Positions 3,490 through 26,257 of a stretch of DNA of 43,563 bases are shown here, one piece after another. The notes beneath the pieces were generated by a model. The model was not told where the DNA came from. It saw nothing but the letters and a program-made list of their open reading frames with translations, and made no database searches. Numbering within the stretch: the first letter of the stretch is position 1; the number at the start of each line of letters is the position of its first letter. The DNA lies in the UHGV virus genome UHGV-0327455. One strand, given 5' to 3'. Source of the stretch: a virus. The position numbers were made by a program, and so were the translations under genes.

Positions 3490-5029
3490 GTCTCACTATC
3501 TCCAATGCTTTCAAAATGTTGTCAGAATACTCTTCCCGCTTAAATGCAGTACGGATAAATGCATCCGATGTTCTTACGTATGCAGCTCCATCTTCACTGT
3601 AGTACCGCTCGAACTGCCCCTTCCAGACGGTCTCTGAAAATGATGCCCGGCGGATAAAACCTTTTGCTTCGTCAAAAGTTACTTCATGCTGCCGTTCATC
3701 GTTAATGTGTTCGCTGTCAAAGCTGAGTTTTTCAAAATCCACTTTGCTCGGTTCAAGATTAATCTTTCCTCGGAAACCCAATTCCTTTAACTCTGATTTT
3801 ATTATAGCAATTCTCTTCCGTTTTTCAATAGCTTCCAGTTCTTCCTTGGTCGGATTAGCCTCGCCAACCTTCAACCGCTCCCTCTGCTGCCGCAGGCCCA
3901 TAGCCTTTGAAAATTCCACATAGGTCTTTTCTGTTAATCGCTTCCTGCATCTGGCAGCAGTCAGGTCATCTTTATCAGCTCTGGCCTTTTCCAGGAGCTT
4001 AATGTCCTGTTTCTGCTTCCGGATCGTGCGTTCCAGCTTCCGCTGATACTGCAGCGCCGCATATGTATCATACTCTTTACCATGAAAGGACTTCTTTTCA
4101 TTCTCTTTCCTGTTCTGCTCCACAAGCCACTCATCTGTGTATTTACGTTTTGAAATACCAGGAATAAAAGGAAAACGGATGTGGTAGCAGTTGATCCCAG
4201 CAAATCCCAGCATCTCTCCCAAACCACAGACAGTACGCATTTCAGCGGAGCTATATACTTTACCCTGCCAGCTTTGGTGGTTCATGTATCCAGTTCCTGT
4301 ATTACGGGCTCCTAAATGCCATTCAACTTCCCAGTAGTCCGTTCCCAGCTCTTTTGCGTTATGCTCATTCACCTTATCGGTCATCTGCGCAATGCCTGTC
4401 ATAACAGCTCTCCTGGCCGCCACCTCAATACGGTCCGACCTTCCTGATGCATAATCAACCACCCGAACGCCACTGGATGTCATCTCATCGATCACATCAC
4501 CGATTGCCTGGCTGTATGTCTTAGCGCCAGTAGTGATCTTCATCATGGCTTCATCTAAGCTGCGTTCCAGATACTCAGACATAGGAGTAAACACTTTTTT
4601 CCCGTTTCCCATTGGCACATTAAAACCGGTTGTCTTTGTGATATTTTCCATAGGCCTAAGACTATCCGTTGTCTGATCCTTTACTGCCTGCACCACCTGT
4701 TTTAGCCAGTCATTATCCTCATACGGGATCGCATCCATGCCTACAGCTTTGTAGATCTCACTATTTCTCACATAATCAGATCTTGCTGCAGTTTCATAGA
4801 TCTCATCAATATCGATCCCTGCAGTTTTTACACCTTCCCGTAGGATCTCTTTGATCCGCTTCTTACTCATGCCTATGGCAGTCATACGATTAAGCAGCCA
4901 ATCTGTCACCGGCGTGATCTGGGAACATTCCCGGATCCGGTTTACGACCTCTAACATGATATCCATTTCCAATGCTGTCATGGTACGTTCTAATGGCTTC
5001 GGCAACTTTTCAAGTTCTTCCGGCGTCAA
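3479..5029 (-). CDS. minor head protein (phage head morphogenesis, SPP1 gp7 / Mu F-like)
   Basis: 516 aa, directly downstream of the portal gene in canonical TerL-portal-MuF order. The C-terminal half is highly charged, as in gp7-family proteins. Confidence 0.7.
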   Translation of the reverse strand: MTPEELEKLPKPLERTMTALEMDIMLEVVNRIRECSQITPVTDWLLNRMTAIGMSKKRIKEILREGVKTAGIDIDEIYETAARSDYVRNSEIYKAVGMDAIPYEDNDWLKQVVQAVKDQTTDSLRPMENITKTTGFNVPMGNGKKVFTPMSEYLERSLDEAMMKITTGAKTYSQAIGDVIDEMTSSGVRVVDYASGRSDRIEVAARRAVMTGIAQMTDKVNEHNAKELGTDYWEVEWHLGARNTGTGYMNHQSWQGKVYSSAEMRTVCGLGEMLGFAGINCYHIRFPFIPGISKRKYTDEWLVEQNRKENEKKSFHGKEYDTYAALQYQRKLERTIRKQKQDIKLLEKARADKDDLTAARCRKRLTEKTYVEFSKAMGLRQQRERLKVGEANPTKEELEAIEKRKRIAIIKSELKELGFRGKINLEPSKVDFEKLSFDSEHINDERQHEVTFDEAKGFIRRASFSETVWKGQFERYYSEDGAAYVRTSDAFIRTAFKREEYSDNILKALEIVRHGR

Positions 5030-5034
5030 TCAGA

Positions 5035-6423
5035 TCACTCCTCTACGTTTGCTGGTTCAGGAAGGTTCTTCTGGGCCTCTTCCATTGTCTCCCCATACCA
5101 CTTGCTTCTGTACTCTGCCAAGCTCATTACACCCATGGCAACATCCGCACGATCCGTCTGACGGTCTGCCTCTGCATCCACTACAATGCTGTCATCCCAG
5201 TCAAAGGAAACCTGATAGTCATTGCCCGGTGGTACCAGACCGTACAAGGAAGCCCAAAAATTCATGGCATATACCAAATCTTCCAGAGCAGTCTGTAAAG
5301 CAAGCTGTGTATCTGACACAAAGGTATAGGAGCGCTGCTTGCTGGTCTTGATCTCCGTTGCTGTCTTATCCACATTCTGAGGATCCGAAAGCGTTCCATA
5401 AGCCAGACAGCAGGCAAACTCTATCAACTTCAACTGATTATTAAATCCATTGAATAATGCTGTATCCCGGATCTCCGGAGAAAATGTGTCTATAAAAGGC
5501 TTGTCTGATGCACCGGTGTTATACTCCACGTTGCGGTATAACCTGTCCTGGCCGCCTGGGTACTCAAACTTATCCAGGTCACGGTTATACTTAAGCATTG
5601 AAGTTGCCACATGCACTGCCAACTGCGTGCCCTCATACTCCCAGCAGATATTGGAATAACGCCTGTCTCCCTCTTTGATCAGCTCCACCGCTCTGGAATA
5701 TACGGATACTCCCAATGGGCTTCCCGTATCATCCGCATTTGCAAGTGGTACCTTAAAATACCCAAACAGAAGCCGATCGGCACCCTCCAGCACTGCTTCC
5801 GGCATTAATTCTGACCACCTATCCACTGCATTTACGCTGATCTCGCTTCCAAGGCTGTAGTCATTGGTTGCAACAAAGGCCCTGTTTGTGATCCGGATCT
5901 GTTCTCCCTGCAGCGTATGGACTTCCAATCTGGTATAGATCTTCTGTCCTTTCCGGAACTGCTCCGTAAACACACACTGTTGGATCTGGCCGGAGTCGTC
6001 AAAAGCAAGAGGGAAGAAACAGTCTGCCTGTACATACTGAATTGCAAGACCTGTTTTTGTAACATACGGTTTTAAAATCAAGCTGCCTTTCGCACATCCG
6101 TACTCCACATACCTGCGGATATTTTTCAGTACCTTTTTCTGATACTGATCATTCAGATAGGCTGCAGAAGAGCCTCCTGTTATCTCCGACTTCATTTCCA
6201 GGGTTACAAGCCTTGCAACTTCAGAGGCAATAGCCGCCGGCAGCTGCGCACTTTTCACTTTCTTCCGGTCTACCCATGGCGCATTATCCTCATACATGGC
6301 CGTCCATAACTCTATTCTTCGGGCCATTTCAGAAGTCATGCAAACATCAACCTGTGTATCCGAGTTCTGATTTAAAACCTGCGTGATCGCAGCCAGCATT
6401 TTAGAAAATTTCATTGTTATCAC
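5035..6423 (-). CDS. portal protein
   Basis: 462 aa, immediately downstream of TerL (ATGA overlap at 6423/6426). Size and position are typical of SPP1-type portals. Confidence 0.8.
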   Translation of the reverse strand: MITMKFSKMLAAITQVLNQNSDTQVDVCMTSEMARRIELWTAMYEDNAPWVDRKKVKSAQLPAAIASEVARLVTLEMKSEITGGSSAAYLNDQYQKKVLKNIRRYVEYGCAKGSLILKPYVTKTGLAIQYVQADCFFPLAFDDSGQIQQCVFTEQFRKGQKIYTRLEVHTLQGEQIRITNRAFVATNDYSLGSEISVNAVDRWSELMPEAVLEGADRLLFGYFKVPLANADDTGSPLGVSVYSRAVELIKEGDRRYSNICWEYEGTQLAVHVATSMLKYNRDLDKFEYPGGQDRLYRNVEYNTGASDKPFIDTFSPEIRDTALFNGFNNQLKLIEFACCLAYGTLSDPQNVDKTATEIKTSKQRSYTFVSDTQLALQTALEDLVYAMNFWASLYGLVPPGNDYQVSFDWDDSIVVDAEADRQTDRADVAMGVMSLAEYRSKWYGETMEEAQKNLPEPANVEE

Positions 6424-6425
6424 CT

Positions 6426-7691
6426 CTATTCGTACCGGATAAACCGGCTGATGTCCCGCTCAAATGTGTACTCAAAAGCATCCAGCGTATCAATATCACT
6501 GGTACCATCATCCAGTCGCACATCTTCCACAAGACTTTTCTTCTCGTCCCACAACGCCGTTGTCAGGGCATCTTCCAGGCTCTGGCACTGATCTTTTACA
6601 TAGAAAAAGCGGTGCTGGCTAAGCATCCGCTGCATAAATCGTATTCTGTCATTGATCGTTGTCTTCAAAGCATTCTCGATCCGGATCCACCCAAGCCCCG
6701 CCTTTCTGACTGCTGTTCTCAGGCCTGCGATCAACGTTTGTTCGGCACTATCACAGTAAACAACTGTAATAAATCCATACAGATTGATGATCTTCAGACA
6801 AAAGTCTACAAATAGTTCTCCCAGCTTATCCGGATCAATGCTGCCATTTACACTTATATGGCGTTCACTGGCAAGTACCGCAATGCTTTGATAAGCTCTG
6901 GAATATGCAGTGGCAACAAAGGCATGTCCTGATCCTGAACCACCAAAGTCAACGCCAATATTAATCTGTAAAAGGCTTTTGGGCTTCTCATAAATTGCAT
7001 ATGGGTTAATGCCTCCACTGGATGTCGCGTCACACATCAGTTTATACACAGAGCCTTCCGCAGCTACCCACAAACCACGGATGTACCGATCATACAGGAC
7101 CGTTCCTCTGTATTCCTTGCAAAGTTCATCCACAAATACCCGGCTAAGAAATGGATTATCGAAGATCTCATATTTCTGACAGTAAATGTCCGCATCAGAG
7201 TCTAGGAACTTTTTAAACCAATGCTGCGGAGCATCCGGGTTACAGGCCCCGTCAAAACAGGAATACGGCTTATCCAGACGGGATTTAAGCATGTTAAAGA
7301 CATCCGGGTTCCAGTCTACAACCTCATCACCATAACAATACTTTAGTGAAGAGCCTCTGATTTTAGATACCTGACTGACTTTCTCAGCACCCAGGCAGTA
7401 AACATCTTCTCCAAACATAGGGCAGATGTTTTGAGAATTAATATCACCTACCAGGTTGGCTCCCCAAATACGCTGCAACGGTTCAATGATGTTTCGCTGA
7501 ATCGTGCCCTTAGAAACGCCCAGGATCGCCACTAGACCCTCTTTTCCTCTCCTGGCACGAATTCTCTTAGGGATTACATAATAGTCCATATAGGTCTTTC
7601 CGGAACGTGTCGCACCAACCTTAACATTCCAACGGTGGTTTGCATTCTGGAAAAACTCCTGCTGTTTATCAGAAAATGGCATACTATACAA
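6426..7691 (-). CDS. terL: terminase large subunit
   Basis: 421 aa with an N-terminal Walker A (GATRSGKTY) and a C-terminal RNaseH-like nuclease region. It overlaps the TerS stop by 8 nt. Confidence 0.9.
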   Translation of the reverse strand: MYSMPFSDKQQEFFQNANHRWNVKVGATRSGKTYMDYYVIPKRIRARRGKEGLVAILGVSKGTIQRNIIEPLQRIWGANLVGDINSQNICPMFGEDVYCLGAEKVSQVSKIRGSSLKYCYGDEVVDWNPDVFNMLKSRLDKPYSCFDGACNPDAPQHWFKKFLDSDADIYCQKYEIFDNPFLSRVFVDELCKEYRGTVLYDRYIRGLWVAAEGSVYKLMCDATSSGGINPYAIYEKPKSLLQINIGVDFGGSGSGHAFVATAYSRAYQSIAVLASERHISVNGSIDPDKLGELFVDFCLKIINLYGFITVVYCDSAEQTLIAGLRTAVRKAGLGWIRIENALKTTINDRIRFMQRMLSQHRFFYVKDQCQSLEDALTTALWDEKKSLVEDVRLDDGTSDIDTLDAFEYTFERDISRFIRYE

Positions 7692-8391
7692 CCCCTTTGA
7701 TCTCGCTAAGAACCTGATCCAGACGGCTCAGCTCCTCTTCGTTGTCGGTCCCCTTAAGTTTATCCGTCTGGGCCTTGATCTGAGCTATGCGGGCTTTCTG
7801 TTCATCACTGGCAAGATCCCAGCGTTTGTGCAATAACTCATCATACTGTTTAACCAGGCTGCGAAGCTCCGACTGTGCCCTAGCCTGGGCCTGTAGGAAT
7901 TTTCCCTGCTTGTCCCAGGCATGCTGTACCTCCCAGCGTTCTCCGATTATGTTGCCGTCCTTATGCTCAATCTTTTCGATTGTCTTATCATCCCGGTCAC
8001 GCACATACATAATTTGTTGCGCCCGGATAATAGCAGCATAAGCAATCTGGATCTGATCCCAGAGGACATCCAGCGGATCTGTCGGCATCTCCTGGATAAT
8101 AGAAACGGTCTCCTCAGGCAAATACTTGCTGAAGAAACCGAATTTTTCTGCTTTCTTATTTCCCGGAGGTCCGCCAGAACTATTATGGTTTCCTGGCTGA
8201 GCGCCCCGTTTACGTTTTTGTGAACGCTCGTTTTTCTTATCCGAACGTTCGTTATCCCATTTATGCGTACACTTCCAACGACGGACCGTCCCTTCCGGCA
8301 GATTTAGTTGACTTGCAATCTCAACCAATTTCTCCCCTTCCAGATACATGGCCTTCGCCTGTTCTATTCTTGGATCCGGCGCTCTGGCCAT
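7684..8391 (-). CDS. terS: terminase small subunit (HTH N-terminus)
   Basis: 235 aa with an N-terminal HTH (LVEIASQLNLPEGTVRRW). It lies directly upstream of TerL. RBS is AAAGAGAGGTGATCGGAC-ATG. Confidence 0.75.
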   Translation of the reverse strand: MARAPDPRIEQAKAMYLEGEKLVEIASQLNLPEGTVRRWKCTHKWDNERSDKKNERSQKRKRGAQPGNHNSSGGPPGNKKAEKFGFFSKYLPEETVSIIQEMPTDPLDVLWDQIQIAYAAIIRAQQIMYVRDRDDKTIEKIEHKDGNIIGERWEVQHAWDKQGKFLQAQARAQSELRSLVKQYDELLHKRWDLASDEQKARIAQIKAQTDKLKGTDNEEELSRLDQVLSEIKGVV

Positions 8392-8447
8392 GTCCGATCA
8401 CCTCTCTTTCGTCGGTTTTGGGTATAGAAAAGGGATGAACATATCTT

Positions 8448-8909
8448 CTATGTATTTCCCATATGCGCTTCATCAATAACAGAATACAATTCTGATATCA
8501 TTTTGTGAATTTCTAAAAACACCCCAGCTTGTTCTTCTGGTTCCAAATTTCTATTTCCACAATTCATTATATAATCTTCTATTTTTTGAGTTATCTCTTT
8601 TAACTTATTATAAAATGACTTATTGGAGTACTTAAAATAAAGAGCGTCTCTCCTCATATCAGTTAACACATTAACCAGTTCATTTGTATCAACTAATCGA
8701 TCATTCTGAAATCGGATATATTTTCTAGCTGCTGGTATCTTTTCAATAAGGTACGCATCAAAAATTTTATTATAATAGTTAGATTTTAATGTTATCTCGC
8801 TTATTCTTTTAGCCTGATTATAGTTTAATCTAAAAATAACAACTGTAACAAGCATAGAAATAACGGCAATTACTGCTGATGCTAATGTGATTTTTTCCTG
8901 TATAGTCAA
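8448..8909 (-). CDS. small membrane protein (N-terminal TM helix), third gene of AT-rich cassette
   Basis: 153 aa with a TTG start 10 nt after a GGAGG RBS. It has a hydrophobic helix (LASAVIAVISMLVTVVIF) and then a soluble K/N/Y-rich domain. Very low GC, unlike the flanks. Confidence 0.55.
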   Translation of the reverse strand: MTIQEKITLASAVIAVISMLVTVVIFRLNYNQAKRISEITLKSNYYNKIFDAYLIEKIPAARKYIRFQNDRLVDTNELVNVLTDMRRDALYFKYSNKSFYNKLKEITQKIEDYIMNCGNRNLEPEEQAGVFLEIHKMISELYSVIDEAHMGNT

Positions 8910-8925
8910 TTATTTTTTCCTCCAT

Positions 8926-9210
8926 CTATTCTAATTTTTTTAATATACTTTGTGATAATGCACTATTTGCCGTTTTTACCTTAGCGTGTTTTTCAGTTTG
9001 TAATAATCCAATTTGACCTACGATTTCAGAAAAAAAGCCTTGCACAAACGAAGAAGCTATTCCAATTATATGGTCCGGAAAAATTATCTCAAAATCTCTT
9101 GATAAATCTAGTCTTCCTTTTACTTGCTTATCATAAATTTCAATTCCAAATTCATACCCTGCTAAATTAGAAATATCCATTTTTAAGTTTAATATGACTT
9201 TATTTTCCAT
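8926..9210 (-). CDS. STAS-like (DUF4325-type) small protein, second gene of AT-rich cassette
   Basis: 94 aa. The motif GRLDLSRDFEIIFPDHIIGIASSFVQGFFSEIVGQIG resembles the STAS/DUF4325 pattern (DLSGV.FI.SSFL..L.G.L). It starts 5 nt after the stop of the GHKL gene with an AAGGGA RBS. Confidence 0.5.
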   Translation of the reverse strand: MENKVILNLKMDISNLAGYEFGIEIYDKQVKGRLDLSRDFEIIFPDHIIGIASSFVQGFFSEIVGQIGLLQTEKHAKVKTANSALSQSILKKLE

Positions 9211-9215
9211 AGTCT

Positions 9216-10382
9216 TTATTCCCTTCTTAATGCAAAATTTAAGTTATATGCTGTTCCAGGCAATTTCGTGGAAATTGTTTGAAAAATATTAAAATCAGGA
9301 ACATTTTCTATAAAATTATGGCTTTCATTAAATCCTATCCATTTGTCATTATCATATTTCATATACTCTGGTTTAAAAAGCATTACTCTATTTCCTGTTA
9401 AAATATAGCACCAATGACCATCTGATTTTTCTTCAAGTGACTTAATAAGTGAAGTCAGTCCCGTTCCACCTGTATGTTTCTTTTTTATACTCCCGGAAAT
9501 TTTATGCTGAAAAGATGCAATAGTAAAAAAATCATTTTCTGAATAATCCTTACCAAAATATTTTGAATGATTTTCTTTTGCTATTAATAAGCTTTTATAA
9601 CGCTCAGATAACTGATTTTGCAATAAAACTTTATTTTTTAAGGATTCATAAAAAAGTTTATCTGAAAAATTAACTATACAAGCATTTAAACCAAAACAGC
9701 TATTTTTAGTTTCTGTATTTAGATATTGCTTGGTAATATCTAAATCCACCAAACATTCCGACTCAGCATGTTCATTAGCATTACCGATTAACTCTACCAT
9801 TACTTCTGCTAATTCTTCACATGCAGACCTTTCAATTTCATTATTTTGTAAGAAGCATCGAATATCTGTCATCAATATAGATAGATACTCTTTTTTCTTA
9901 GATGGTTTTATAATTTTTCTATAATGATTTTGATTTATATCAAATGCAAATCTTTGTTTATAACGTTCTATTTTTTCTTCATTACCATCTAGTAATATCA
10001 GTGGCGAAAATCGTATTCCTTCTGACCATATCGTATGTTCCGCTGTAAAAAAAATTGCAATTTGTTGTTTACGTTCGGATAATAAATAATTACAAATACA
10101 CTCAAGTAAAACATACACTAGTTTATCATGAAAATAAAATCGTCCTAGATAGATCTCGATTGGAATTTTAATATTTGGATACTTATCTATTACATAATCA
10201 ATAAAATAAATAATTTGTTTTAGTTCATTTCCTGTAAATACTTCTGAACTAATTCTAAAAATAGCTTTGCCATTTTTAAAGCATATTTTATGTTTATTGA
10301 AATTATGTGAATTTTTATTATTATCAATTAATAATCTTTGATTAAGCATAATATCCCCTTTTTTCTTTTCATCATACTCCAA
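9216..10382 (-). CDS. GHKL (histidine-kinase-like) ATPase with ~200-aa N-terminal domain of unknown function; first gene of AT-rich cassette
   Basis: N-box ELIGNANEHAES and G2-box HTGGTGLTSL...ILTGNRVML are read from the translation. The ORF track starts at TTG 10382; the first ATG with an AAGGGG RBS is at 10349. GC is far below that of flanking phage genes. Confidence 0.6.
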   Translation of the reverse strand: MEYDEKKKGDIMLNQRLLIDNNKNSHNFNKHKICFKNGKAIFRISSEVFTGNELKQIIYFIDYVIDKYPNIKIPIEIYLGRFYFHDKLVYVLLECICNYLLSERKQQIAIFFTAEHTIWSEGIRFSPLILLDGNEEKIERYKQRFAFDINQNHYRKIIKPSKKKEYLSILMTDIRCFLQNNEIERSACEELAEVMVELIGNANEHAESECLVDLDITKQYLNTETKNSCFGLNACIVNFSDKLFYESLKNKVLLQNQLSERYKSLLIAKENHSKYFGKDYSENDFFTIASFQHKISGSIKKKHTGGTGLTSLIKSLEEKSDGHWCYILTGNRVMLFKPEYMKYDNDKWIGFNESHNFIENVPDFNIFQTISTKLPGTAYNLNFALRRE

Positions 10383-10397
10383 AATACGACAAAAAGG

Positions 10398-10426
10398 AAG
10401 TCCCTGCGTCTAACAGAGGCTTCCAA
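10398..10426 (-). terminator. hairpin (ggaagtccctgcgtctaacagaggcttcc) followed by T-run on minus strand, downstream of tRNA
   Basis: Imperfect 9-11 bp stem, with ttttgtcgtatttt after it on the minus strand. It could terminate the tRNA/late-regulator transcript just before the cassette. Confidence 0.35.
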
Positions 10427-10461
10427 GAAAAAGGGGAAGTACAAAATAGCAACTAAAATCA

Positions 10462-10533
10462 TCGGAACGGAAGGAATTGAACCCTCAACACGCTGTTTAA
10501 AAGCCAGCTGCTCTACCACTGAGCTACGTTCCA
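10462..10533 (-). tRNA. tRNA-Lys (anticodon UUU)
   Basis: Hand-folded cloverleaf: acceptor UGGAACG/CGUUCCG with discriminator A73; U8; D-arm GCUC-AGUGGUA-GAGC; anticodon stem GCUGG/ACAGC (G31-A39 mismatch) with loop CUUUUAA (U33, anticodon UUU, A37); variable loop 5 nt; T-arm GAGGG-UUCAAUU-CCUUC. No CCA is encoded. Confidence 0.75.
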
Positions 10534-10660
10534 AGGGGGAGGCAACAAGCTTTCACCTGCTGCCTAGTGGGGTTTGACGTAAGCCGTTGGCTGTATGCCT
10601 TTGGCTTCATGGTACACTATAGCATATTGAAAACGAAAAATGCGAAATATACGAAATAAC

Positions 10661-11095
10661 TTATTTTTCTTTCATAAAATTTGTGTATTCCATTCTTACT
10701 CCGTCTGCAGTAGCTTTTCTCCCCATTCTCACCGCCACTTCACTCCAGGTAAGTTCCTCAAAAATCTTATACCTGATAATTCGTTGCATCCTCTGTGGAA
10801 TAGTGTTTAACCATGCCTCCACATCATGTTTGATCCGTTCCGCATTCTGCAGCCGCTCTTTCAAGATTTCTTCCAGCCGATCCAGTTCATCCGGATCCTT
10901 TACTACAGGATACGCCAGTCCCTCAATGTGGAATGTCTGTGCTGTATAAGGAAACTCATGTGAAGAGCCCTTTACCGTATCCTGTACAATTTTCTTTCTG
11001 GCTTTCTTAAGCTTCAGGATTTCCTTTTTGGTATCTTCCACCTGAGCGCATGCATCTATGTATTGTACTAATATCTGCTTGTCCAATGGTATCAC
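10661..11095 (-). CDS. late gene transcriptional activator, sigma-70 region-4-like (ArpU/RinA/DUF1492 family)
   Basis: 144 aa. The C-terminal HTH LTWSEVAVRMGRKATADGVRMEY resembles sigma region 4. It sits upstream of terS at the early/late boundary. Confidence 0.65.
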   Translation of the reverse strand: MIPLDKQILVQYIDACAQVEDTKKEILKLKKARKKIVQDTVKGSSHEFPYTAQTFHIEGLAYPVVKDPDELDRLEEILKERLQNAERIKHDVEAWLNTIPQRMQRIIRYKIFEELTWSEVAVRMGRKATADGVRMEYTNFMKEK

Positions 11096-11469
11096 CTCAT
11101 TCCTGCTCTTGGTTTGTATGTACGTTCTCCCAGAAGATATTCCTCTTCCTTCCTCTGCTGCCCCAGAAGCTGTCTCAATCGGTTTAAGGTATCCCTATTC
11201 TTCTGATCCTCAAAAAACTTCACCAGCTTCTCATCCATCTTTGCCATATCTTTATTTATCCGTCTGGTTCTCCTGCTCTGTTGAAGGCTTGCTGCGATCC
11301 GGTTCCTTTCGTTCCGATCCTTGGCAAATTCCATTTCATGAAGGAAGTCCTGGAGACGTTTGTCCTCTTCAACAACTTTATCGCAAGCATACCTGTATTC
11401 TAACGTACATTCATCGTAGTAGCTTAGAAACTCTTCCAAGGCCTGCGCTGGTGTCTTTCTCTTACTCAT
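11092..11469 (-). CDS. hypothetical protein (charged, coiled-coil-like)
   Basis: 125-aa ORF overlapping the downstream gene start by 4 nt. No recognisable motifs. Confidence 0.45.
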   Translation of the reverse strand: MSKRKTPAQALEEFLSYYDECTLEYRYACDKVVEEDKRLQDFLHEMEFAKDRNERNRIAASLQQSRRTRRINKDMAKMDEKLVKFFEDQKNRDTLNRLRQLLGQQRKEEEYLLGERTYKPRAGMR

Positions 11470-11656
11470 CTGGTACTCTCCTTAACTCCGGATCCGGGCA
11501 GAGGCTTGTCCCTGCATAAGCTGGCATCCTAGCTGACCAGGTTGTAGGCTTCGGTCCATTGATTATATCCTTATCAGCTGCGGCTATGGCACTTCGTCTT
11601 TGCAGCTGGTTTGCTTTTCTCTGGGCATCTGACTTTACTAATCCCATTCTTCGCAT
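11462..11656 (-). CDS. hypothetical small basic protein
   Basis: 64-aa ORF overlapping the next gene by 8 nt. Composition is plausible and no better-supported ORF covers the region. Confidence 0.3.
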   Translation of the reverse strand: MRRMGLVKSDAQRKANQLQRRSAIAAADKDIINGPKPTTWSARMPAYAGTSLCPDPELRRVPDE

Positions 11657-11732
11657 CCTCTCCCTTCTTGCGCATGGCAGCTATCACATACTCCACATTG
11701 GGATTTACTCGTTTCCACATGGCTGGCCTCTC

Positions 11733-11942
11733 TCAATTCCAGTTTTTCCCATCTTCATATGCTGCTTTCAAATTTTCAAAATCACATGACTCCATAATAT
11801 TTGCCATTACTGCAATGGTCATTGTGTTTATTTCGTGCATAGTTTTTCCGAGTTTGATGCCATGTGGCATTACTGAACTATTACGAATTACCGCAAATAA
11901 TGCCAGTTTATATTTTTCTTCTTGTGTCATTTTATCCTCCAA
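11733..11942 (-). CDS. hypothetical protein
   Basis: 69-aa ORF in the AT-rich early/late boundary region. Confidence 0.4.
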   Translation of the reverse strand: MEDKMTQEEKYKLALFAVIRNSSVMPHGIKLGKTMHEINTMTIAVMANIMESCDFENLKAAYEDGKNWN

Positions 11943-11955
11943 ATCTTAATATCTC

Positions 11956-12102
11956 CTACAACAATAAGATATTTAAAAGCTCCAGCAATGTAATACTTAA
12001 TGCAGCTATACGGGTGCTTTTAGCCACACCAGTCTCCAAAGCAACACTAAGTGATGCTAAGCCAAATAAGATATCTAAAACCCAAACAATCAATTTTACC
12101 AT
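11956..12102 (-). CDS. small hydrophobic two-TM peptide (48 aa; MVKLIVWVLDILFGLASLSVALETGVAKSTRIAALSITLLELLNILLL)
   Basis: Own translation with an AAGGA-like RBS. Below the ORF-track size cutoff. Strongly hydrophobic. Confidence 0.3.
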   Translation of the reverse strand: MVKLIVWVLDILFGLASLSVALETGVAKSTRIAALSITLLELLNILLL

Positions 12103-12164
12103 CTTGCATTCTATCCTTTCTTTACTGACATCATGCCCTCATTCAACGAATTTTCCACTACGAT

Positions 12165-12350
12165 CTATATTTTCTTCTTCTGCGGCTCCTTTACTCCTGT
12201 CATGCATTCTCTGATATATCTATGCGGTACATCACACCCTACTGCATTCATGGCCATTTCATACTGCACAGCCTGCTTCATCAATTTATAAAAGTCTGAA
12301 AACTTCATCTGTACCCGGTCTTCGGCACCAAACGTATCTGCTAATCCCAT
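12165..12350 (-). CDS. hypothetical protein
   Basis: 61-aa ORF; no motifs recognised. Confidence 0.35.
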   Translation of the reverse strand: MGLADTFGAEDRVQMKFSDFYKLMKQAVQYEMAMNAVGCDVPHRYIRECMTGVKEPQKKKI

Positions 12351-12432
12351 TTCATTTTCCTCCGTATCTCAATTTTAATTTCTGCCAGTAACTCAACTAA
12401 TAATTCAAAAATCAACCGAAAACTCAATTGCT

Positions 12433-12948
12433 TTATTCAACTTTCTCAAATCGATCCATGTAATGATCTTGCCAGTCGGCATAGGCATCTGGCCTTTCTT
12501 CTACCTCTGCCTTGTATGGCTCTGGAAGCGGCATCCAGGCAGTTACTGTTGCCTCCAGATTCGGCCGTCCCATGCTATACCAGCCAATCTCCTTACTATA
12601 TGTTGCAAGCACAAACGCATCTATAAGCCTTATGCTTCCATCTTTTCCATTACACTGCACCAACACTTCTTCATCTTCAGATTCTGGCAGCCGTTCTGTC
12701 GCTGGAATCCACCTATGCTCTTCCTTTGAAGCGGCTAAAAGCGTCATAACCATAGCATAGTTCTTTATTAAATCCGCTATGCACTCCGGATTACCTCCTG
12801 TGTTTTCATAGTCCTTAAGTTTGCACAGCGCACCATACAGCCTTTCACTTACTTCTTTGGTGATTACCTGGCCTGCTCGCAACTGCTCCCACCTGACACC
12901 CTTCAGGCACCAGTTACCCAGCTCATCCTTTTCTGTTAATCTCTGCAT
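12433..12948 (-). CDS. DUF551-like phage protein
   Basis: 171 aa. The motif HRWIPATERLPESEDEEVLVQCNGKDG resembles the DUF551 W-I...LP...VLV core seen in many phage early proteins. Confidence 0.45.
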   Translation of the reverse strand: MQRLTEKDELGNWCLKGVRWEQLRAGQVITKEVSERLYGALCKLKDYENTGGNPECIADLIKNYAMVMTLLAASKEEHRWIPATERLPESEDEEVLVQCNGKDGSIRLIDAFVLATYSKEIGWYSMGRPNLEATVTAWMPLPEPYKAEVEERPDAYADWQDHYMDRFEKVE

Positions 12949-13387
12949 TTCCTTCCTCCATCTTCTTCAAATACCCGCATACTGTACTTGGTGCAAGCTG
13001 CAGTTCCTCAGCGATCTGCTTCATACTCCATCCAGCATTGCGAAGCGCCTTCATTTTTCCAAAATCAATCTGCTTTTTGTTTGTTGCTTCTGACTTTGGT
13101 GACTCTGGCTTTTCCTTGGTTTCCGCAGCTGTCTCTGTTGGCTTCTCTTCCACTACCTTTGGCTTTGCTACTTCTCCCAGTTCCTTCTCAGCTGGCTCTG
13201 TCTCTCTTTTTTCTTCCTCCAGCACGATCCGGAAGAACTCACAGCCAGCCAGGATCTTCTTCAATGTCAGGAACTCATAATCATCCAGGTTCTTAGGTTC
13301 CGGCACTACCGGCTGGAGCACTCCCACCATCAGCCCTCTTTTGTGCAGTTCCAGTGCCTCATCTATTGCAATTTGTTTTATGATCAT
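12923..13387 (-). CDS. HTH DNA-binding protein (C-terminal sigma-r4/resolvase-like HTH) with P/E/K-rich linker
   Basis: The C-terminus GWSMKQIAEELQLAPSTVCGYLKK is a clear HTH. The low-complexity linker is EKPTETAAETKEKPESPK. Confidence 0.5.
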   Translation of the reverse strand: MIIKQIAIDEALELHKRGLMVGVLQPVVPEPKNLDDYEFLTLKKILAGCEFFRIVLEEEKRETEPAEKELGEVAKPKVVEEKPTETAAETKEKPESPKSEATNKKQIDFGKMKALRNAGWSMKQIAEELQLAPSTVCGYLKKMEEGNAEINRKG

Positions 13388-23442: not shown

Positions 23443-23871
23443 ATGTATGAAATTTTTGAACTATTATGCCGGAAAAATGGAGTAACCCCTTACCGTGTTT
23501 GCAAAGAAACTGGCCTCACTACTGCTACAATTAGTAACTGGAAAGCCGGTCGTTATGTTCCAAAAGCTGATAAAATGCAGAAAATTGCGGATTATTTTGG
23601 TGTTAGCATTGAATATCTAATGACCGGAAAAGAAAATGCTGTAACTGAAAAAGTCCCAGAACTGACATCACGGGATGAAAGAGACATTGCAAAAGATCTG
23701 GACCGAATCATGGGAGAAATTCAGAAAGGTGATGATGGCCCGCTATATTACAATGGTATTGAAATTGACAATGCATCTCTGAACCTACTCCAGAACGCCA
23801 TTGTATATGCCCTCAGAGAAACCAAGAAAGAAAACAAAGTTAAATACAATCCAAATAAGAATAAAAAGTAG
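23443..23871 (+). CDS. CI-like XRE-family repressor (ImmR-like)
   Basis: N-terminal HTH GVTPYRVCKETGLTTATISNWKAG. It is followed by an ImmA-like peptidase, as in ImmR/ImmA pairs. Confidence 0.75.
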   Translation: MYEIFELLCRKNGVTPYRVCKETGLTTATISNWKAGRYVPKADKMQKIADYFGVSIEYLMTGKENAVTEKVPELTSRDERDIAKDLDRIMGEIQKGDDGPLYYNGIEIDNASLNLLQNAIVYALRETKKENKVKYNPNKNKK

Positions 23872-24325
23872 GTGTCGCCGTTTGGAGACTGTAAACCATA
23901 AGATTCGTCGTTTAATCAGGTACTATGAACATCTAACCGGCAGCCGGGATCCTGTTACTATTGCACGGTACGCCGGGATCCAGATCGCAGTATTACCGTT
24001 AGGCAATATTTCTGGAAACTACAAACTTCTAAAAAGAAAATGTTGGATTTTTATAAATGAGGATATTCCATCTGACAGTTCACTTTTTCGGGTTGTTGTA
24101 GCACACGAATTAGGTCATGCTTTACTACATAGAAAAGAGAATTGTGCTTTTCTAAAAAATAAAACATTACTGCTTACATCTGGAATAGAAAGAGAAGCAA
24201 ATTTGTTTGCCGCTTCCCTTTTGATATCAGATGAAATGTTGCAAGATTATACTGTATACACTCAGGACCAGTTCTGTCAATGCACAGGATATCCTAAGGA
24301 ATTGCTTGAATTAAGGCTGAAATAA
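23801..24325 (+). CDS. immA: ImmA/IrrE-family zinc metallopeptidase (anti-repressor protease)
   Basis: HEXXH motif VVAHELGHALLH. The 5' end overlaps the repressor gene by about 70 nt, so the exact start is uncertain. Confidence 0.75.
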   Translation: MYMPSEKPRKKTKLNTIQIRIKSRCRRLETVNHKIRRLIRYYEHLTGSRDPVTIARYAGIQIAVLPLGNISGNYKLLKRKCWIFINEDIPSDSSLFRVVVAHELGHALLHRKENCAFLKNKTLLLTSGIEREANLFAASLLISDEMLQDYTVYTQDQFCQCTGYPKELLELRLK

Positions 24326-24354
24326 GCAAAAATACTACAGATAAGGAGTTTGTT

Positions 24355-24648
24355 ATGTTTACTCGTCTATATTTAGAAGATTTTAGAATTTTTAAGGATC
24401 AAACTATTCATATAGGGAATACTATTACCGCTATAGCTGGACATAATGCCACTGGAAAGTCTACAATTTTAGGAATTCTTGGAAATACCTGTGAACTTAA
24501 GAGTAAATTCGGAACAACTATTACTGATAAACAATTTAAAACTGAATTTTCTGAACTATTCAAGGGTTCAAAAGCTTTTGACAAACGAAGTGGAGATATC
24601 GGTACTCTTTTTTACCTCCCACAAGATAATGATAACGAGATTATTTGA
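24355..24648 (+). pseudogene. N-terminal fragment of OLD-family/ABC-type ATPase (Walker A GHNATGKST), terminated by frameshift/stop
   Basis: MFTRLYLEDFRIFKDQTIHIGNTITAIAGHNATGKSTILG is the typical OLD/AriA/AAA_15 N-terminus. The ORF is only 97 aa. The downstream ORF continues in the -1 frame. Confidence 0.5.
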
Positions 24649-25235
24649 CCAGTAATAATCGAAAGATAAATATTTATTCAGAAGACGCTGAAGCACGATA
24701 TTTCATAAGACATATGCTCGCTGACTATAAGGATCATTTTCGCCTTTTAGACATTAAATTAGGTGGAGAATCTCTTATGAATCTTTTATATAATGACCCT
24801 GATTACTTTAAAAATGTTCTATTTATATTAGACGGAGATAAAGATTTAGCAAAAACCAAATACGCCGAATTACCTGCTAAACATTGTAATGTTATTTTCT
24901 TACCTGGTAACGAAGGACCAGAAGCATTACTATACAATTATTTAATCAATCTCCCTCCAACTCACGAAATCTTACAGGAAAATTTCGACAAAGGTATATC
25001 CATTAGAATGTTTAAAGAAATGAATCCTCTGACTTCACCCAAATATGCTTCATATGAAAAAAATCGTGAGAAATACAAGCACTGGTTCATAGATAATCAA
25101 GCTATGTTTGATGATCTAAATATTATGCGATATTGGTGTGAAGATAACCAAACAGATCTTGATACATTCAAAAAAACATTTGTTAATCGATTTAATATTT
25201 TAGCTTCCAGAACCAAAATACCTAAAATCAATTAG
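24645..25235 (+). pseudogene. TOPRIM-like (OLD/AriB/DUF4435-like) C-terminal fragment, no independent ATG+RBS
   Basis: INIYSEDAEARYF (E motif) and VLFILDGDKD (DxD motif) resemble TOPRIM. The frame is open only from 24636 and starts at TTG. The first in-frame ATG (24714) lacks an RBS. Confidence 0.4.
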
Positions 25236-25288
25236 TTCTGGCCAAATATCTATAAATATGATAAGCTGACTAAAGGAGGTGAGATTAA

Positions 25289-26161
25289 ATGTCGATAAAA
25301 AATCCCTTACGCTATCCTGGTGCTAAATCTAAGTTATATGATTATATATGCAAATTACTTATTGCAGAGCAGCGAACCGGATGCACTTTTTACGAACCAT
25401 TCGCTGGCAGTGCTGCCATATCATTGCTACTTTTGGAAAACCAAGTTATCAGCAAGGCTGTTCTTAATGAACTTGATCCCTTGCTTTATAACTTTTGGTT
25501 CTCTGTGTTTAATCACACTGAAGAACTGATTACGCTTATTAGAAACACTGATATTACATTAGAAAATTGGCATGAGTTTTCTCTTTATAGAAATAATGAT
25601 TATCTTCAAGACAAAACATCTGTTCAAATAGGTTTTGCTGGTTTATTTTTAAATAGAACTAACTTCTCTGGCATACTAAAGGCCAATCCACTCGGTGGGC
25701 TAAATCAGCAATCTCAATACCCTATTAATTGTCGATTTAATAAAGATAAGATTATTAATTCCATTCAACAGCTTTCGCTATATGGAAATAAAATAACTCT
25801 TTACAATTTAGACGCTATTGACTTTATGAAGCAAGCACTACGATATAAACGGAACAGAAAAACTTTTGTATACATAGACCCTCCATACTATAAAGAAGGA
25901 GCTAATTTGTATAGATGCTATTATACACATGAGCAACATATGCTTTTATCTAAATTTATCCTATCCAAAACCTACCCATGGCTGATTAGTTATGATAATG
26001 CTGAAGAAATTCGGAAAATGTACAAACAATTGTCTCCATTAACCATACATATGGACTACTCCGTACATACCTCAAGAAACGCCGAAGAGTTACTCATATC
26101 TAATATAAAAATCCCACCCATGGAACCTTCATCTACAACTATTGAACCACTAATTGGTTAA
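25289..26161 (+). CDS. dam: Dam-family N6-adenine DNA methyltransferase (D12 class)
   Basis: Motif I FYEPFAGSAAI and motif IV YIDPPYY. RBS AAAGGAGGTGAG. Confidence 0.85.
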   Translation: MSIKNPLRYPGAKSKLYDYICKLLIAEQRTGCTFYEPFAGSAAISLLLLENQVISKAVLNELDPLLYNFWFSVFNHTEELITLIRNTDITLENWHEFSLYRNNDYLQDKTSVQIGFAGLFLNRTNFSGILKANPLGGLNQQSQYPINCRFNKDKIINSIQQLSLYGNKITLYNLDAIDFMKQALRYKRNRKTFVYIDPPYYKEGANLYRCYYTHEQHMLLSKFILSKTYPWLISYDNAEEIRKMYKQLSPLTIHMDYSVHTSRNAEELLISNIKIPPMEPSSTTIEPLIG

Positions 26162-26257
26162 TAGATTTTCTCTTACATTTATACGCTGAACTATTTCCGG
26201 TTTGGAAACACTTCAGAACTAACCATCTAGATTTTCATACGGTTAAGAAAGGAGCCT

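Follow-up and report, generated by a model that had tools for sequence, protein, structure and literature searches.

What does a compact, AT-rich set of three genes do in the genome of a temperate gut phage, and does it belong to any regulatory or defense system that has already been named? The question is raised by the virus genome UHGV-0327455, the whole 43,563 nucleotides (nt) of which are called the window here, and in which three minus-strand genes, hereafter g1, g2, and g3, lie between a tRNA-Lys gene and terS. Comparison across genomes reveals that this trio is a conserved, self-contained, and horizontally mobile unit. We regard it as a good candidate for a new defense variant, one that is concrete and testable, and with moderate confidence we read it as a kinase-gated toxin-antitoxin or abortive-infection module analogous to the VapKSC operon, in which a membrane effector would take the place of the PIN nuclease.

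Three coupled genes that travel together

The cassette consists of the following genes.

9216..10349, minus strand: g1, 377 amino acids (aa), with a STAS-like N-terminal part of ~170 aa and an RsbW/SpoIIAB-like GHKL serine-kinase domain in the C-terminal ~200 aa
8926..9210, minus strand: g2, 94 aa, DUF4325 (STAS-like), with Ser53-Ser54 at the predicted phospho-acceptor position
8448..8909, minus strand: g3, 153 aa, starting with TTG and preceded by GGAGG 8 nt upstream

Measured in 300-nt windows, the content of guanine and cytosine (GC) stays within 0.23-0.30 from 8450 to 10400 and is 0.44-0.51 on both sides, and the bin 9001-10000, at 0.274, is the minimum over the whole 43.5-kb window. As open reading frames (ORFs), the three genes extend over 9216..10382 (g1), 8926..9210 (g2), and 8448..8909 (g3) of the minus strand with a spacing of 5 and 16 nt, and Shine-Dalgarno-like sites (aaGGGGa, AAGGGA, and GGAGG) are found upstream of all three. 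An earlier note on this DNA had described just such an abrupt GC drop and three coupled genes with these gaps and a ribosome-binding site (RBS) each, and the motifs that it quoted, ELIGNANEHAES, HTGGTGLTSL, and ...IGIASSFVQGFF, were every one found in the ORF translations. Its span for g1 stood at the stop end but not at the TTG start of 10382; g1 almost certainly begins with the ATG at 10349, because an RBS precedes this ATG, the database protein that is 100% identical to g1 (P0001) is likewise 377 aa long, and the homology shared with cassette-less relatives reaches 10352-10360 in some of them.

That the genes form a co-localized unit, as had been supposed, is borne out by a scan of one genome per species, which gave 44 loci whose gene order was read by tblastn: g1, g2, and g3 are adjacent, with their order kept, in 40 of them. 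The four exceptions are of different kinds. At one (L043) the contig stops after g2, and in S. caprae (L050) g3 was missed by tblastn, yet a 165-aa ORF follows g2, and an S. caprae protein of 165 aa (P0132) matches the g3 profile. A Subdoligranulum metagenome-assembled genome (MAG) retains a decayed short remnant (L055, 421-1060), while in a Ruminococcus MAG (L035, 9878-13217) the g1 homolog is followed by unrelated genes, without g2 or g3, which may point to another output module or to decay of the locus; the genes after this homolog encode 369 aa (weak DUF4307) and 266 aa. Another decayed trio, with a disrupted g1, was seen in Lacrimispora xylanisolvens (L045, 10001-11800), and the decayed copies at L045 and L055 show that the module can be lost through erosion. 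Looked up reciprocally from Streptococcus proteins of the g3 family, a gene of 395-401 aa and a DUF4325 gene of 94-96 aa lay directly upstream in every place shown. The hosts are almost all Bacillota and include Lachnospiraceae, Oscillospiraceae, Ruminococcus, Paenibacillus, Lysinibacillus, Enterococcus, Streptococcus, and a Veillonellaceae, besides one locus in a Coriobacteriaceae (Actinomycetota), and the sites include plasmids, integrative elements, and prophages. P0001 itself occurs on 528 contigs (937 index blocks).

The g1 family is compact, at ~380 aa, and among 1.84 billion representatives it comprises 565 clusters (50% identity) at E <= 1e-3 and 323 at E <= 1e-30; nearly all of its best 150 matches span the whole ~380-aa profile, bar a few truncated entries. 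In sequence searches g1 itself matched no model of Pfam, NCBIfam, or PADLOC, profile searches of PDB sequences with g1 and g2 returned nothing meaningful, and the sole recurrent weak Pfam match was that of 12 of 45 g1 homologs to HATPase_c_2 (RsbW-type; best E 0.0055). Viral structures (BFVD) searched with g1 gave no convincing match. The AlphaFold2 (AF2) model of g1 has a predicted local distance difference test (pLDDT) value of 90.9 and a predicted template modeling (pTM) value of 0.91, and its best structural matches are the anti-sigma factors RsbW, SpoIIAB, and UsfX. A second and separate set of matches consists of STAS domains with ~90 aligned residues apiece, namely those of SLC26A11 (score 8.3), RsbR (7.7), RsbS (7.6), TM1081 (7.0), and SpoIIAA (6.4), and residues 22-135 of the model follow the STAS order of elements, beta-beta-alpha-beta-alpha-beta-alpha; in g1, therefore, a STAS-like domain is joined to a GHKL domain that resembles those of RsbW and SpoIIAB. 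The N-terminal assignment, made from structural matches and element order, is well supported but not exact. The GHKL domain claimed by the earlier note thus holds, as a fold of RsbW/SpoIIAB type, whereas its "unknown ~200-aa N-terminal domain" does not, being STAS-like.

Across the 45 g1 homologs the ATP-binding N box is invariant at E182, E186, N190, and H194 (ExxxNAxxH; E186-x3-N190-A-x2-H194), as is the G2 box at G294, G295, G297, L298, and T299 (GGTGLT). D202 and D204 are also invariant, in a G1 box that reads D-L-D-I-T and not DxGxG. Between this degenerate G1 box and the G2 box lies a conserved helical insert of ~90 aa with the invariant residues H261, Y269, D273, F274, and Q281, and the N-terminal domain carries the conserved aromatic or basic residues F72, K76, H142, and R144.

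The window copy of g2 matches Pfam DUF4325 below threshold (E 0.0011, 19.1 bits), and orthologs from the trio exceed the gathering threshold of the family (40.4 bits at L003, 28.8 at L038, and 27.8 at L053), so that the STAS/DUF4325-like character given to g2 at first sight is confirmed. Among 41 orthologs the residues G22, S54, F55, Q57, and G58 never vary, and conservation of S53 is at least 90%. We presume g2 to be the substrate of the kinase and the switch subunit.

The third protein was rightly taken for a single-pass membrane protein. Its N-terminal transmembrane helix (about residues 7-27; hydropathy 2.68 over residues 7-25) runs on into a stalk helix and then a four-helix bundle that is predicted to be cytoplasmic (AF2 model with pLDDT 88.5: helix 3-62, then the bundle), and all 44 of 44 orthologs have exactly one hydrophobic segment, with 0.5 lysine plus arginine residues in its N-flank and 2.73 in its C-flank. 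No family of Pfam, PADLOC, or NCBIfam was matched by g3. It is presumed to be the effector or output of the cassette, and the topology of the model places its bundle where g1 and g2 could be met.

A proposed kinase switch built like VapKSC

A closely analogous design is found in vapKSC, a three-gene operon for the kinase VapK (STAS and GHKL domains), the STAS antitoxin VapS, and the PIN toxin VapC (Chambers et al., EMBO J 2026, PMC13373217). VapS uses its STAS domain to bind the toxin directly, and its residues 94-116, the C-terminal helix, are required to inhibit VapC by blocking the active site of the toxin; the kinase is switched on by single-stranded DNA (ssDNA) through a conserved aromatic residue and has been proposed to phosphorylate VapS at Ser48, upon which VapC is released (PMC13373217). 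The operon characterized comes from an Escherichia strain and confers ~2-log protection against phage Bas42, and VapKSC is mobile and sometimes found near defense genes (PMC13373217). Of the vapKSC operons, 36% have a defense gene within 10 kb. The logic first proposed for the phage cassette, with a kinase as switch, a STAS protein as partner, and a membrane protein as effector, thereby gains an experimental precedent.

The two operons are alike in several respects. Both have the order kinase, small STAS protein, effector; VapK and, by its predicted fold, g1 join a STAS or STAS-like domain to an anti-sigma-type GHKL domain; and both small proteins belong to DUF4325 and have a conserved serine where helix 2 begins. 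A phosphatase gene is absent from either operon, and the cassette, like VapKSC, is mobile and sometimes near defense genes. With the VapS and VapK sequences taken from the supplementary model file of PMC13373217, VapS matched Pfam DUF4325 at E 2.7e-17, the same family as g2, and A52-S53 of g2 aligned opposite A47-S48 of VapS (hhalign, at low probability and with a single-sequence template). They differ in that the effector of the cassette is a membrane-anchored four-helix bundle and VapC a PIN nuclease, in that g1 has 377 aa with the ~90-aa insert and the degenerate G1 box against 302 aa for VapK, and in their hosts, almost all Bacillota as opposed to Escherichia for the characterized VapKSC. 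The cassette is not a member of VapKSC, because it has no PIN effector, its g2 has no C-terminal helix, and the homology of the kinases is undetectable in sequence.

Other known systems share parts of this design. CapK (an HTH-STAS-GHKL kinase; HTH, helix-turn-helix) and CapS (a STAS-wHTH repressor; wHTH, winged HTH) control adjacent immune operons (PMC13373217), and they resemble the cassette in pairing a STAS and GHKL kinase with a STAS-domain substrate switched by serine phosphorylation, given the kinase activity predicted for g1. However, g1 has no HTH and g2 no wHTH, so nothing suggests DNA binding or transcriptional control, and no conserved downstream immune operon adjoins the trio among the flanking proteins compared. 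RsbW/RsbV and SpoIIAB/SpoIIAA likewise have a STAS partner with a serine acceptor, which is predicted in g2, but the trio has neither a sigma-factor target nor a PP2C phosphatase, its kinase is fused to a STAS-like domain of its own, g2 is DUF4325 and not a canonical STAS (PF01740), and the trio is mobile cargo rather than part of a core regulon. Lastly, wHTH-HATPase_c_2-DUF4325 fusions draw on the same RsbW-type GHKL and DUF4325 families, and one of them (L095) occupies the same genomic slot in a related phage, yet they are a single polypeptide with an HTH and have no membrane partner. NCBIfam and PHROGs gave no match to the trio. In a literature search, DUF4325 or partner switching was tied to phage defense only by Chambers et al. 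(2026; PMC13373217), and such a trio was mentioned in no other paper found. The term "undescribed system" does not wholly fit the design, since the year 2026 brought a closely analogous operon for a kinase, a DUF4325 protein, and a toxin.

By analogy with VapKSC, g1 would be the sensor kinase, g2 its DUF4325/STAS substrate, and g3 the membrane-anchored output. Unphosphorylated g2 would keep g3 inactive until a cue from infection or stress activated g1, perhaps by way of the groove that separates its STAS domain from its kinase domain, as is the case in CapK and VapK; active g1 would then phosphorylate g2 on the conserved Ser53/Ser54, and phosphorylated g2 would release g3, which may perturb the membrane. 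The outcome would be arrest or death of the cell, whether by abortive infection or by exclusion of superinfecting phages, or failing that an action of toxin-antitoxin type. If this proposal is true, the principle of CapK and VapK, in which a serine kinase frees an immune output via a STAS protein, would extend to Gram-positive gut bacteria and their prophages and would gain a new, non-enzymatic membrane effector. The cassette also offers a clean test of modularity, that is, of one switch with different effectors, and public assemblies commonly contain the identical cassette.

Several observations weigh against this proposal. The g1 profile shares only the N box with VapK, at an hhalign probability of 8% and without significant sequence similarity, and since the G1 box is degenerate, kinase activity of g1 is an assumption. 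The 94 aa of g2 end with the STAS core, whereas VapS, at 116 aa, has the inhibitory C-terminal helix. No toxin or pore domain is recognizable in g3, the fold search of which led to generic helical bundles only. None of g1, g2, and g3 matched a model of PADLOC-DB v2.0.0 at E <= 1, in keeping with the earlier note, which did not recognize the trio as any named defense system. Finally, the nearness to defense genes described below is anecdotal, and housekeeping genes (valS and the atp operon) are the neighbors at some loci.

Some of these points would suit classical partner switching, in which g1 sequesters g3 in the way that an anti-sigma factor holds its sigma factor and unphosphorylated g2 displaces it; the activating part would fall to g2 and the inhibiting part to g1, with g3 still the output. 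The best structural matches of g1 (RsbW, SpoIIAB, and UsfX) are true anti-sigma factors that work in this manner, the absence from g2 of the VapS inhibitory helix fits it, and the large conserved insert of g1, with H261, Y269, D273, F274, and Q281, could be a partner-binding surface. Yet VapS, the only characterized DUF4325 protein, binds its toxin directly through the STAS domain, the cassette lacks a phosphatase that would reset such a switch, and g3 is no sigma factor; we consider partner switching, the main rival, unlikely.

Genomic neighbors and the case for defense

The neighbors of the trio vary from locus to locus. The 150 nearest flanking proteins match 148 different Pfam families, and neither a sigma factor nor a phosphatase was a conserved neighbor in the 42 loci compared, so that only g1-g2-g3 is the conserved unit. 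In Streptococcus (L142-L150, region of about 3500-8450 in locus coordinates) the trio lies within an island bounded by valS and the atp operon and is directly followed by a C5 DNA methylase (406-410 aa) and an unannotated gene of 524-526 aa, which may encode the cognate restriction enzyme. Reading the 882-, 404-, and 520-aa genes of this region as a type I restriction-modification system was rejected, the 882-aa product being valyl-tRNA synthetase and the 406-aa product the C5 DNA methylase. One of these loci (L142) also contains an ISL3 transposase. At L060 two genes lie upstream of the trio (4724-5922), one for an HTH protein and one for a 247-aa product that faintly matches Peptidase_M78 (ImmA-like), and the trio is followed by a 794-aa STAND-like protein with faint AAA_16/TPR matches (9127-11511), and an integrase is nearby. 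Abi_2 is found near the trio on a Lachnospira eligens plasmid, and DNA methylases, nSTAND3, and AbiEii-type AAA_21 are among the flanking genes. In the Paenibacillus copy (L001) four tandem tyrosine-recombinase genes lie downstream of the trio. The recombinase side of that locus spans 8806-13137, and a small protein with a "Cytotoxic" domain (E 4e-6) is encoded upstream of the trio at 3542-3793.

A bolder claim, which we put forward only tentatively, is that Bacillota and their prophages have in the trio a system for anti-phage defense or superinfection exclusion that is so far undescribed, combining a STAS-fused anti-sigma-type kinase whose sequence family is unrelated to CapK and VapK, a minimal DUF4325 protein, and a new class of membrane-anchored four-helix-bundle effector. 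The kinase would then sense infection, possibly by a cue other than ssDNA, and, if the claim is true, pairs of kinase and DUF4325 protein would be a general modular trigger for a PIN nuclease, a membrane protein, or a repressor.

Alternatively, the trio may be a kinase-gated toxin-antitoxin, addiction, or general stress-response module that is favored for stabilizing mobile elements or for a response to DNA damage and does not act against phages specifically; g3 might then be a membrane scaffold and not a toxin. Its presence on plasmids, integrative elements, and prophages and the housekeeping neighbors of some copies are compatible with such a role, as is the generic helical bundle of g3, and the authors of the VapKSC study themselves call the boundary between defense and stress response blurred (PMC13373217). 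Still, we think it improbable: VapKSC protects against a phage (PMC13373217), the streptococcal copies have a DNA methylase gene and what may be a restriction gene next to them, Abi_2 and STAND-like neighbors occur at other loci, and in related phages the cargo slot holds genes of defense type such as SLATT_5. The VapKSC-like proposal remains the one that we prefer, and the slot itself is described in the following section.

The cargo slot upstream of terS

In the window the cassette is framed by these features.

10661-11095, minus strand: putative late activator, with weak matches to Sigma70_r4 (E 0.002) and DUF722 (E 0.006)
10461-10534, minus strand: tRNA-Lys(ttt)
10350..10460 (~110 nt), minus strand: slot leader from tRNA-Lys to the cargo start codon, with a hairpin, a TATGAT box, and the g1 RBS
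8392..8447, minus strand: downstream junction from the g3 stop to the terS start, with BLAST boundaries; homology of relatives resumes at 8433
7684-8391: terS (Pfam Phage_terminase, E 1.6e-10)

The phage is temperate, as it encodes a serine recombinase (27274-28971) and an ImmA/IrrE-type peptidase (23801-24325). Eight mosaic prophages carry the identical cassette (g1 and g2 at 100%, g3 at 99%) upstream of terS; they differ in their replication modules, and two of them also in the terminase genes. None of 80 IMG/VR relatives found via terS carries the trio, including five with a 98% identical terS, and when the region was compared by BLASTN with 50,697 phage genomes on deposit, the tRNA alone was matched.

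Comparison with cassette-less relatives by BLAST locates the exchanged segment. Upstream, homology ends at 10382-10461 in L068, L065, and L075 and reaches as far as 10352-10360 in L062, L070, and L072, which share the leader furthest, and downstream it starts again at 8433; the swapped segment therefore begins at the g1 start codon and ends 14 nt beyond the g3 stop. This cargo segment (about 8434-10351) holds the three closely packed minus-strand genes at 27% GC in a phage of 44-50% GC. Its GC is foreign to the phage (0.27 vs. ~0.47 in the flanks), it precisely replaces what lies between the conserved flanks, and relatives have other cargo in its place, all of which are marks of phage accessory cargo at a fixed hotspot; the cassette is dispensable.

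The suggestion of the earlier note that the region upstream of terS is a hotspot for variable cargo proved correct, in that the cargo of relatives differs and is in part defense-like. In the cassette-less relatives it is low in GC (0.27-0.35). One relative (L082, 5206-5916) encodes a two-transmembrane effector protein of SLATT_5 (Pfam E 7e-8; PADLOC RTasSLATT E 1.8e-12), and the fusion at L095 (4862-5902) is a 347-aa protein with a winged-HTH-like N-terminus, HATPase_c_2 (E 5.5e-7), and DUF4325 (E 1.6e-14) at the C-terminus. The cargo just upstream of terS in L062, L065, L068, L070, L099, L101, and L129 has no family match and may represent further accessory or defense genes, and the slot in this phage group is a place where further cargo can be sought.

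The leader is common to relatives with different cargo. Aligned with L062, L070, L072, and L068, it is conserved up to the RBS and the start codon and diverges beyond, and it contains a terminator-like hairpin at 10402-10418 with a T-run and the conserved TATGAT box; it may supply expression signals to whichever gene fills the slot. A promoter scan of the leader region gave matches no better than chance. The idea that the tRNA serves as the integration point did not hold, since relatives without the cassette keep both tRNA and leader and no att-like direct repeats were found flanking the cassette; the tRNA-Lys gene is therefore a neighbor and not an integration site, and exchange via recombination between the conserved flanks is the simpler reading.

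The label of late activator is plausible but not established, as it rests on the weak Sigma70_r4 and DUF722 matches (E 0.002-0.006). That g1 and g2, as an anti-sigma-like kinase and its antagonist, control this sigma-like activator, packaging, or lysis timing for the phage itself is highly improbable, for even though g1 resembles anti-sigma factors and the cassette lies between that gene and terS in the orientation of the late genes, the cassette is missing from phages whose late-activator genes are 92-95% identical and whose terS is 89-98% identical, its GC is foreign to the phage, most copies of the trio are outside phages, and non-phage loci of the trio without a sigma-like neighbor occur.

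A second island of low GC (0.32-0.36) is present on the plus strand of the window at 23801-27259, adjoining the serine recombinase gene (27274-28971). It encodes the ImmA/IrrE peptidase, a 196-aa ORF without assignment, a D12 N6-adenine DNA methyltransferase, and a RhuM-family protein.

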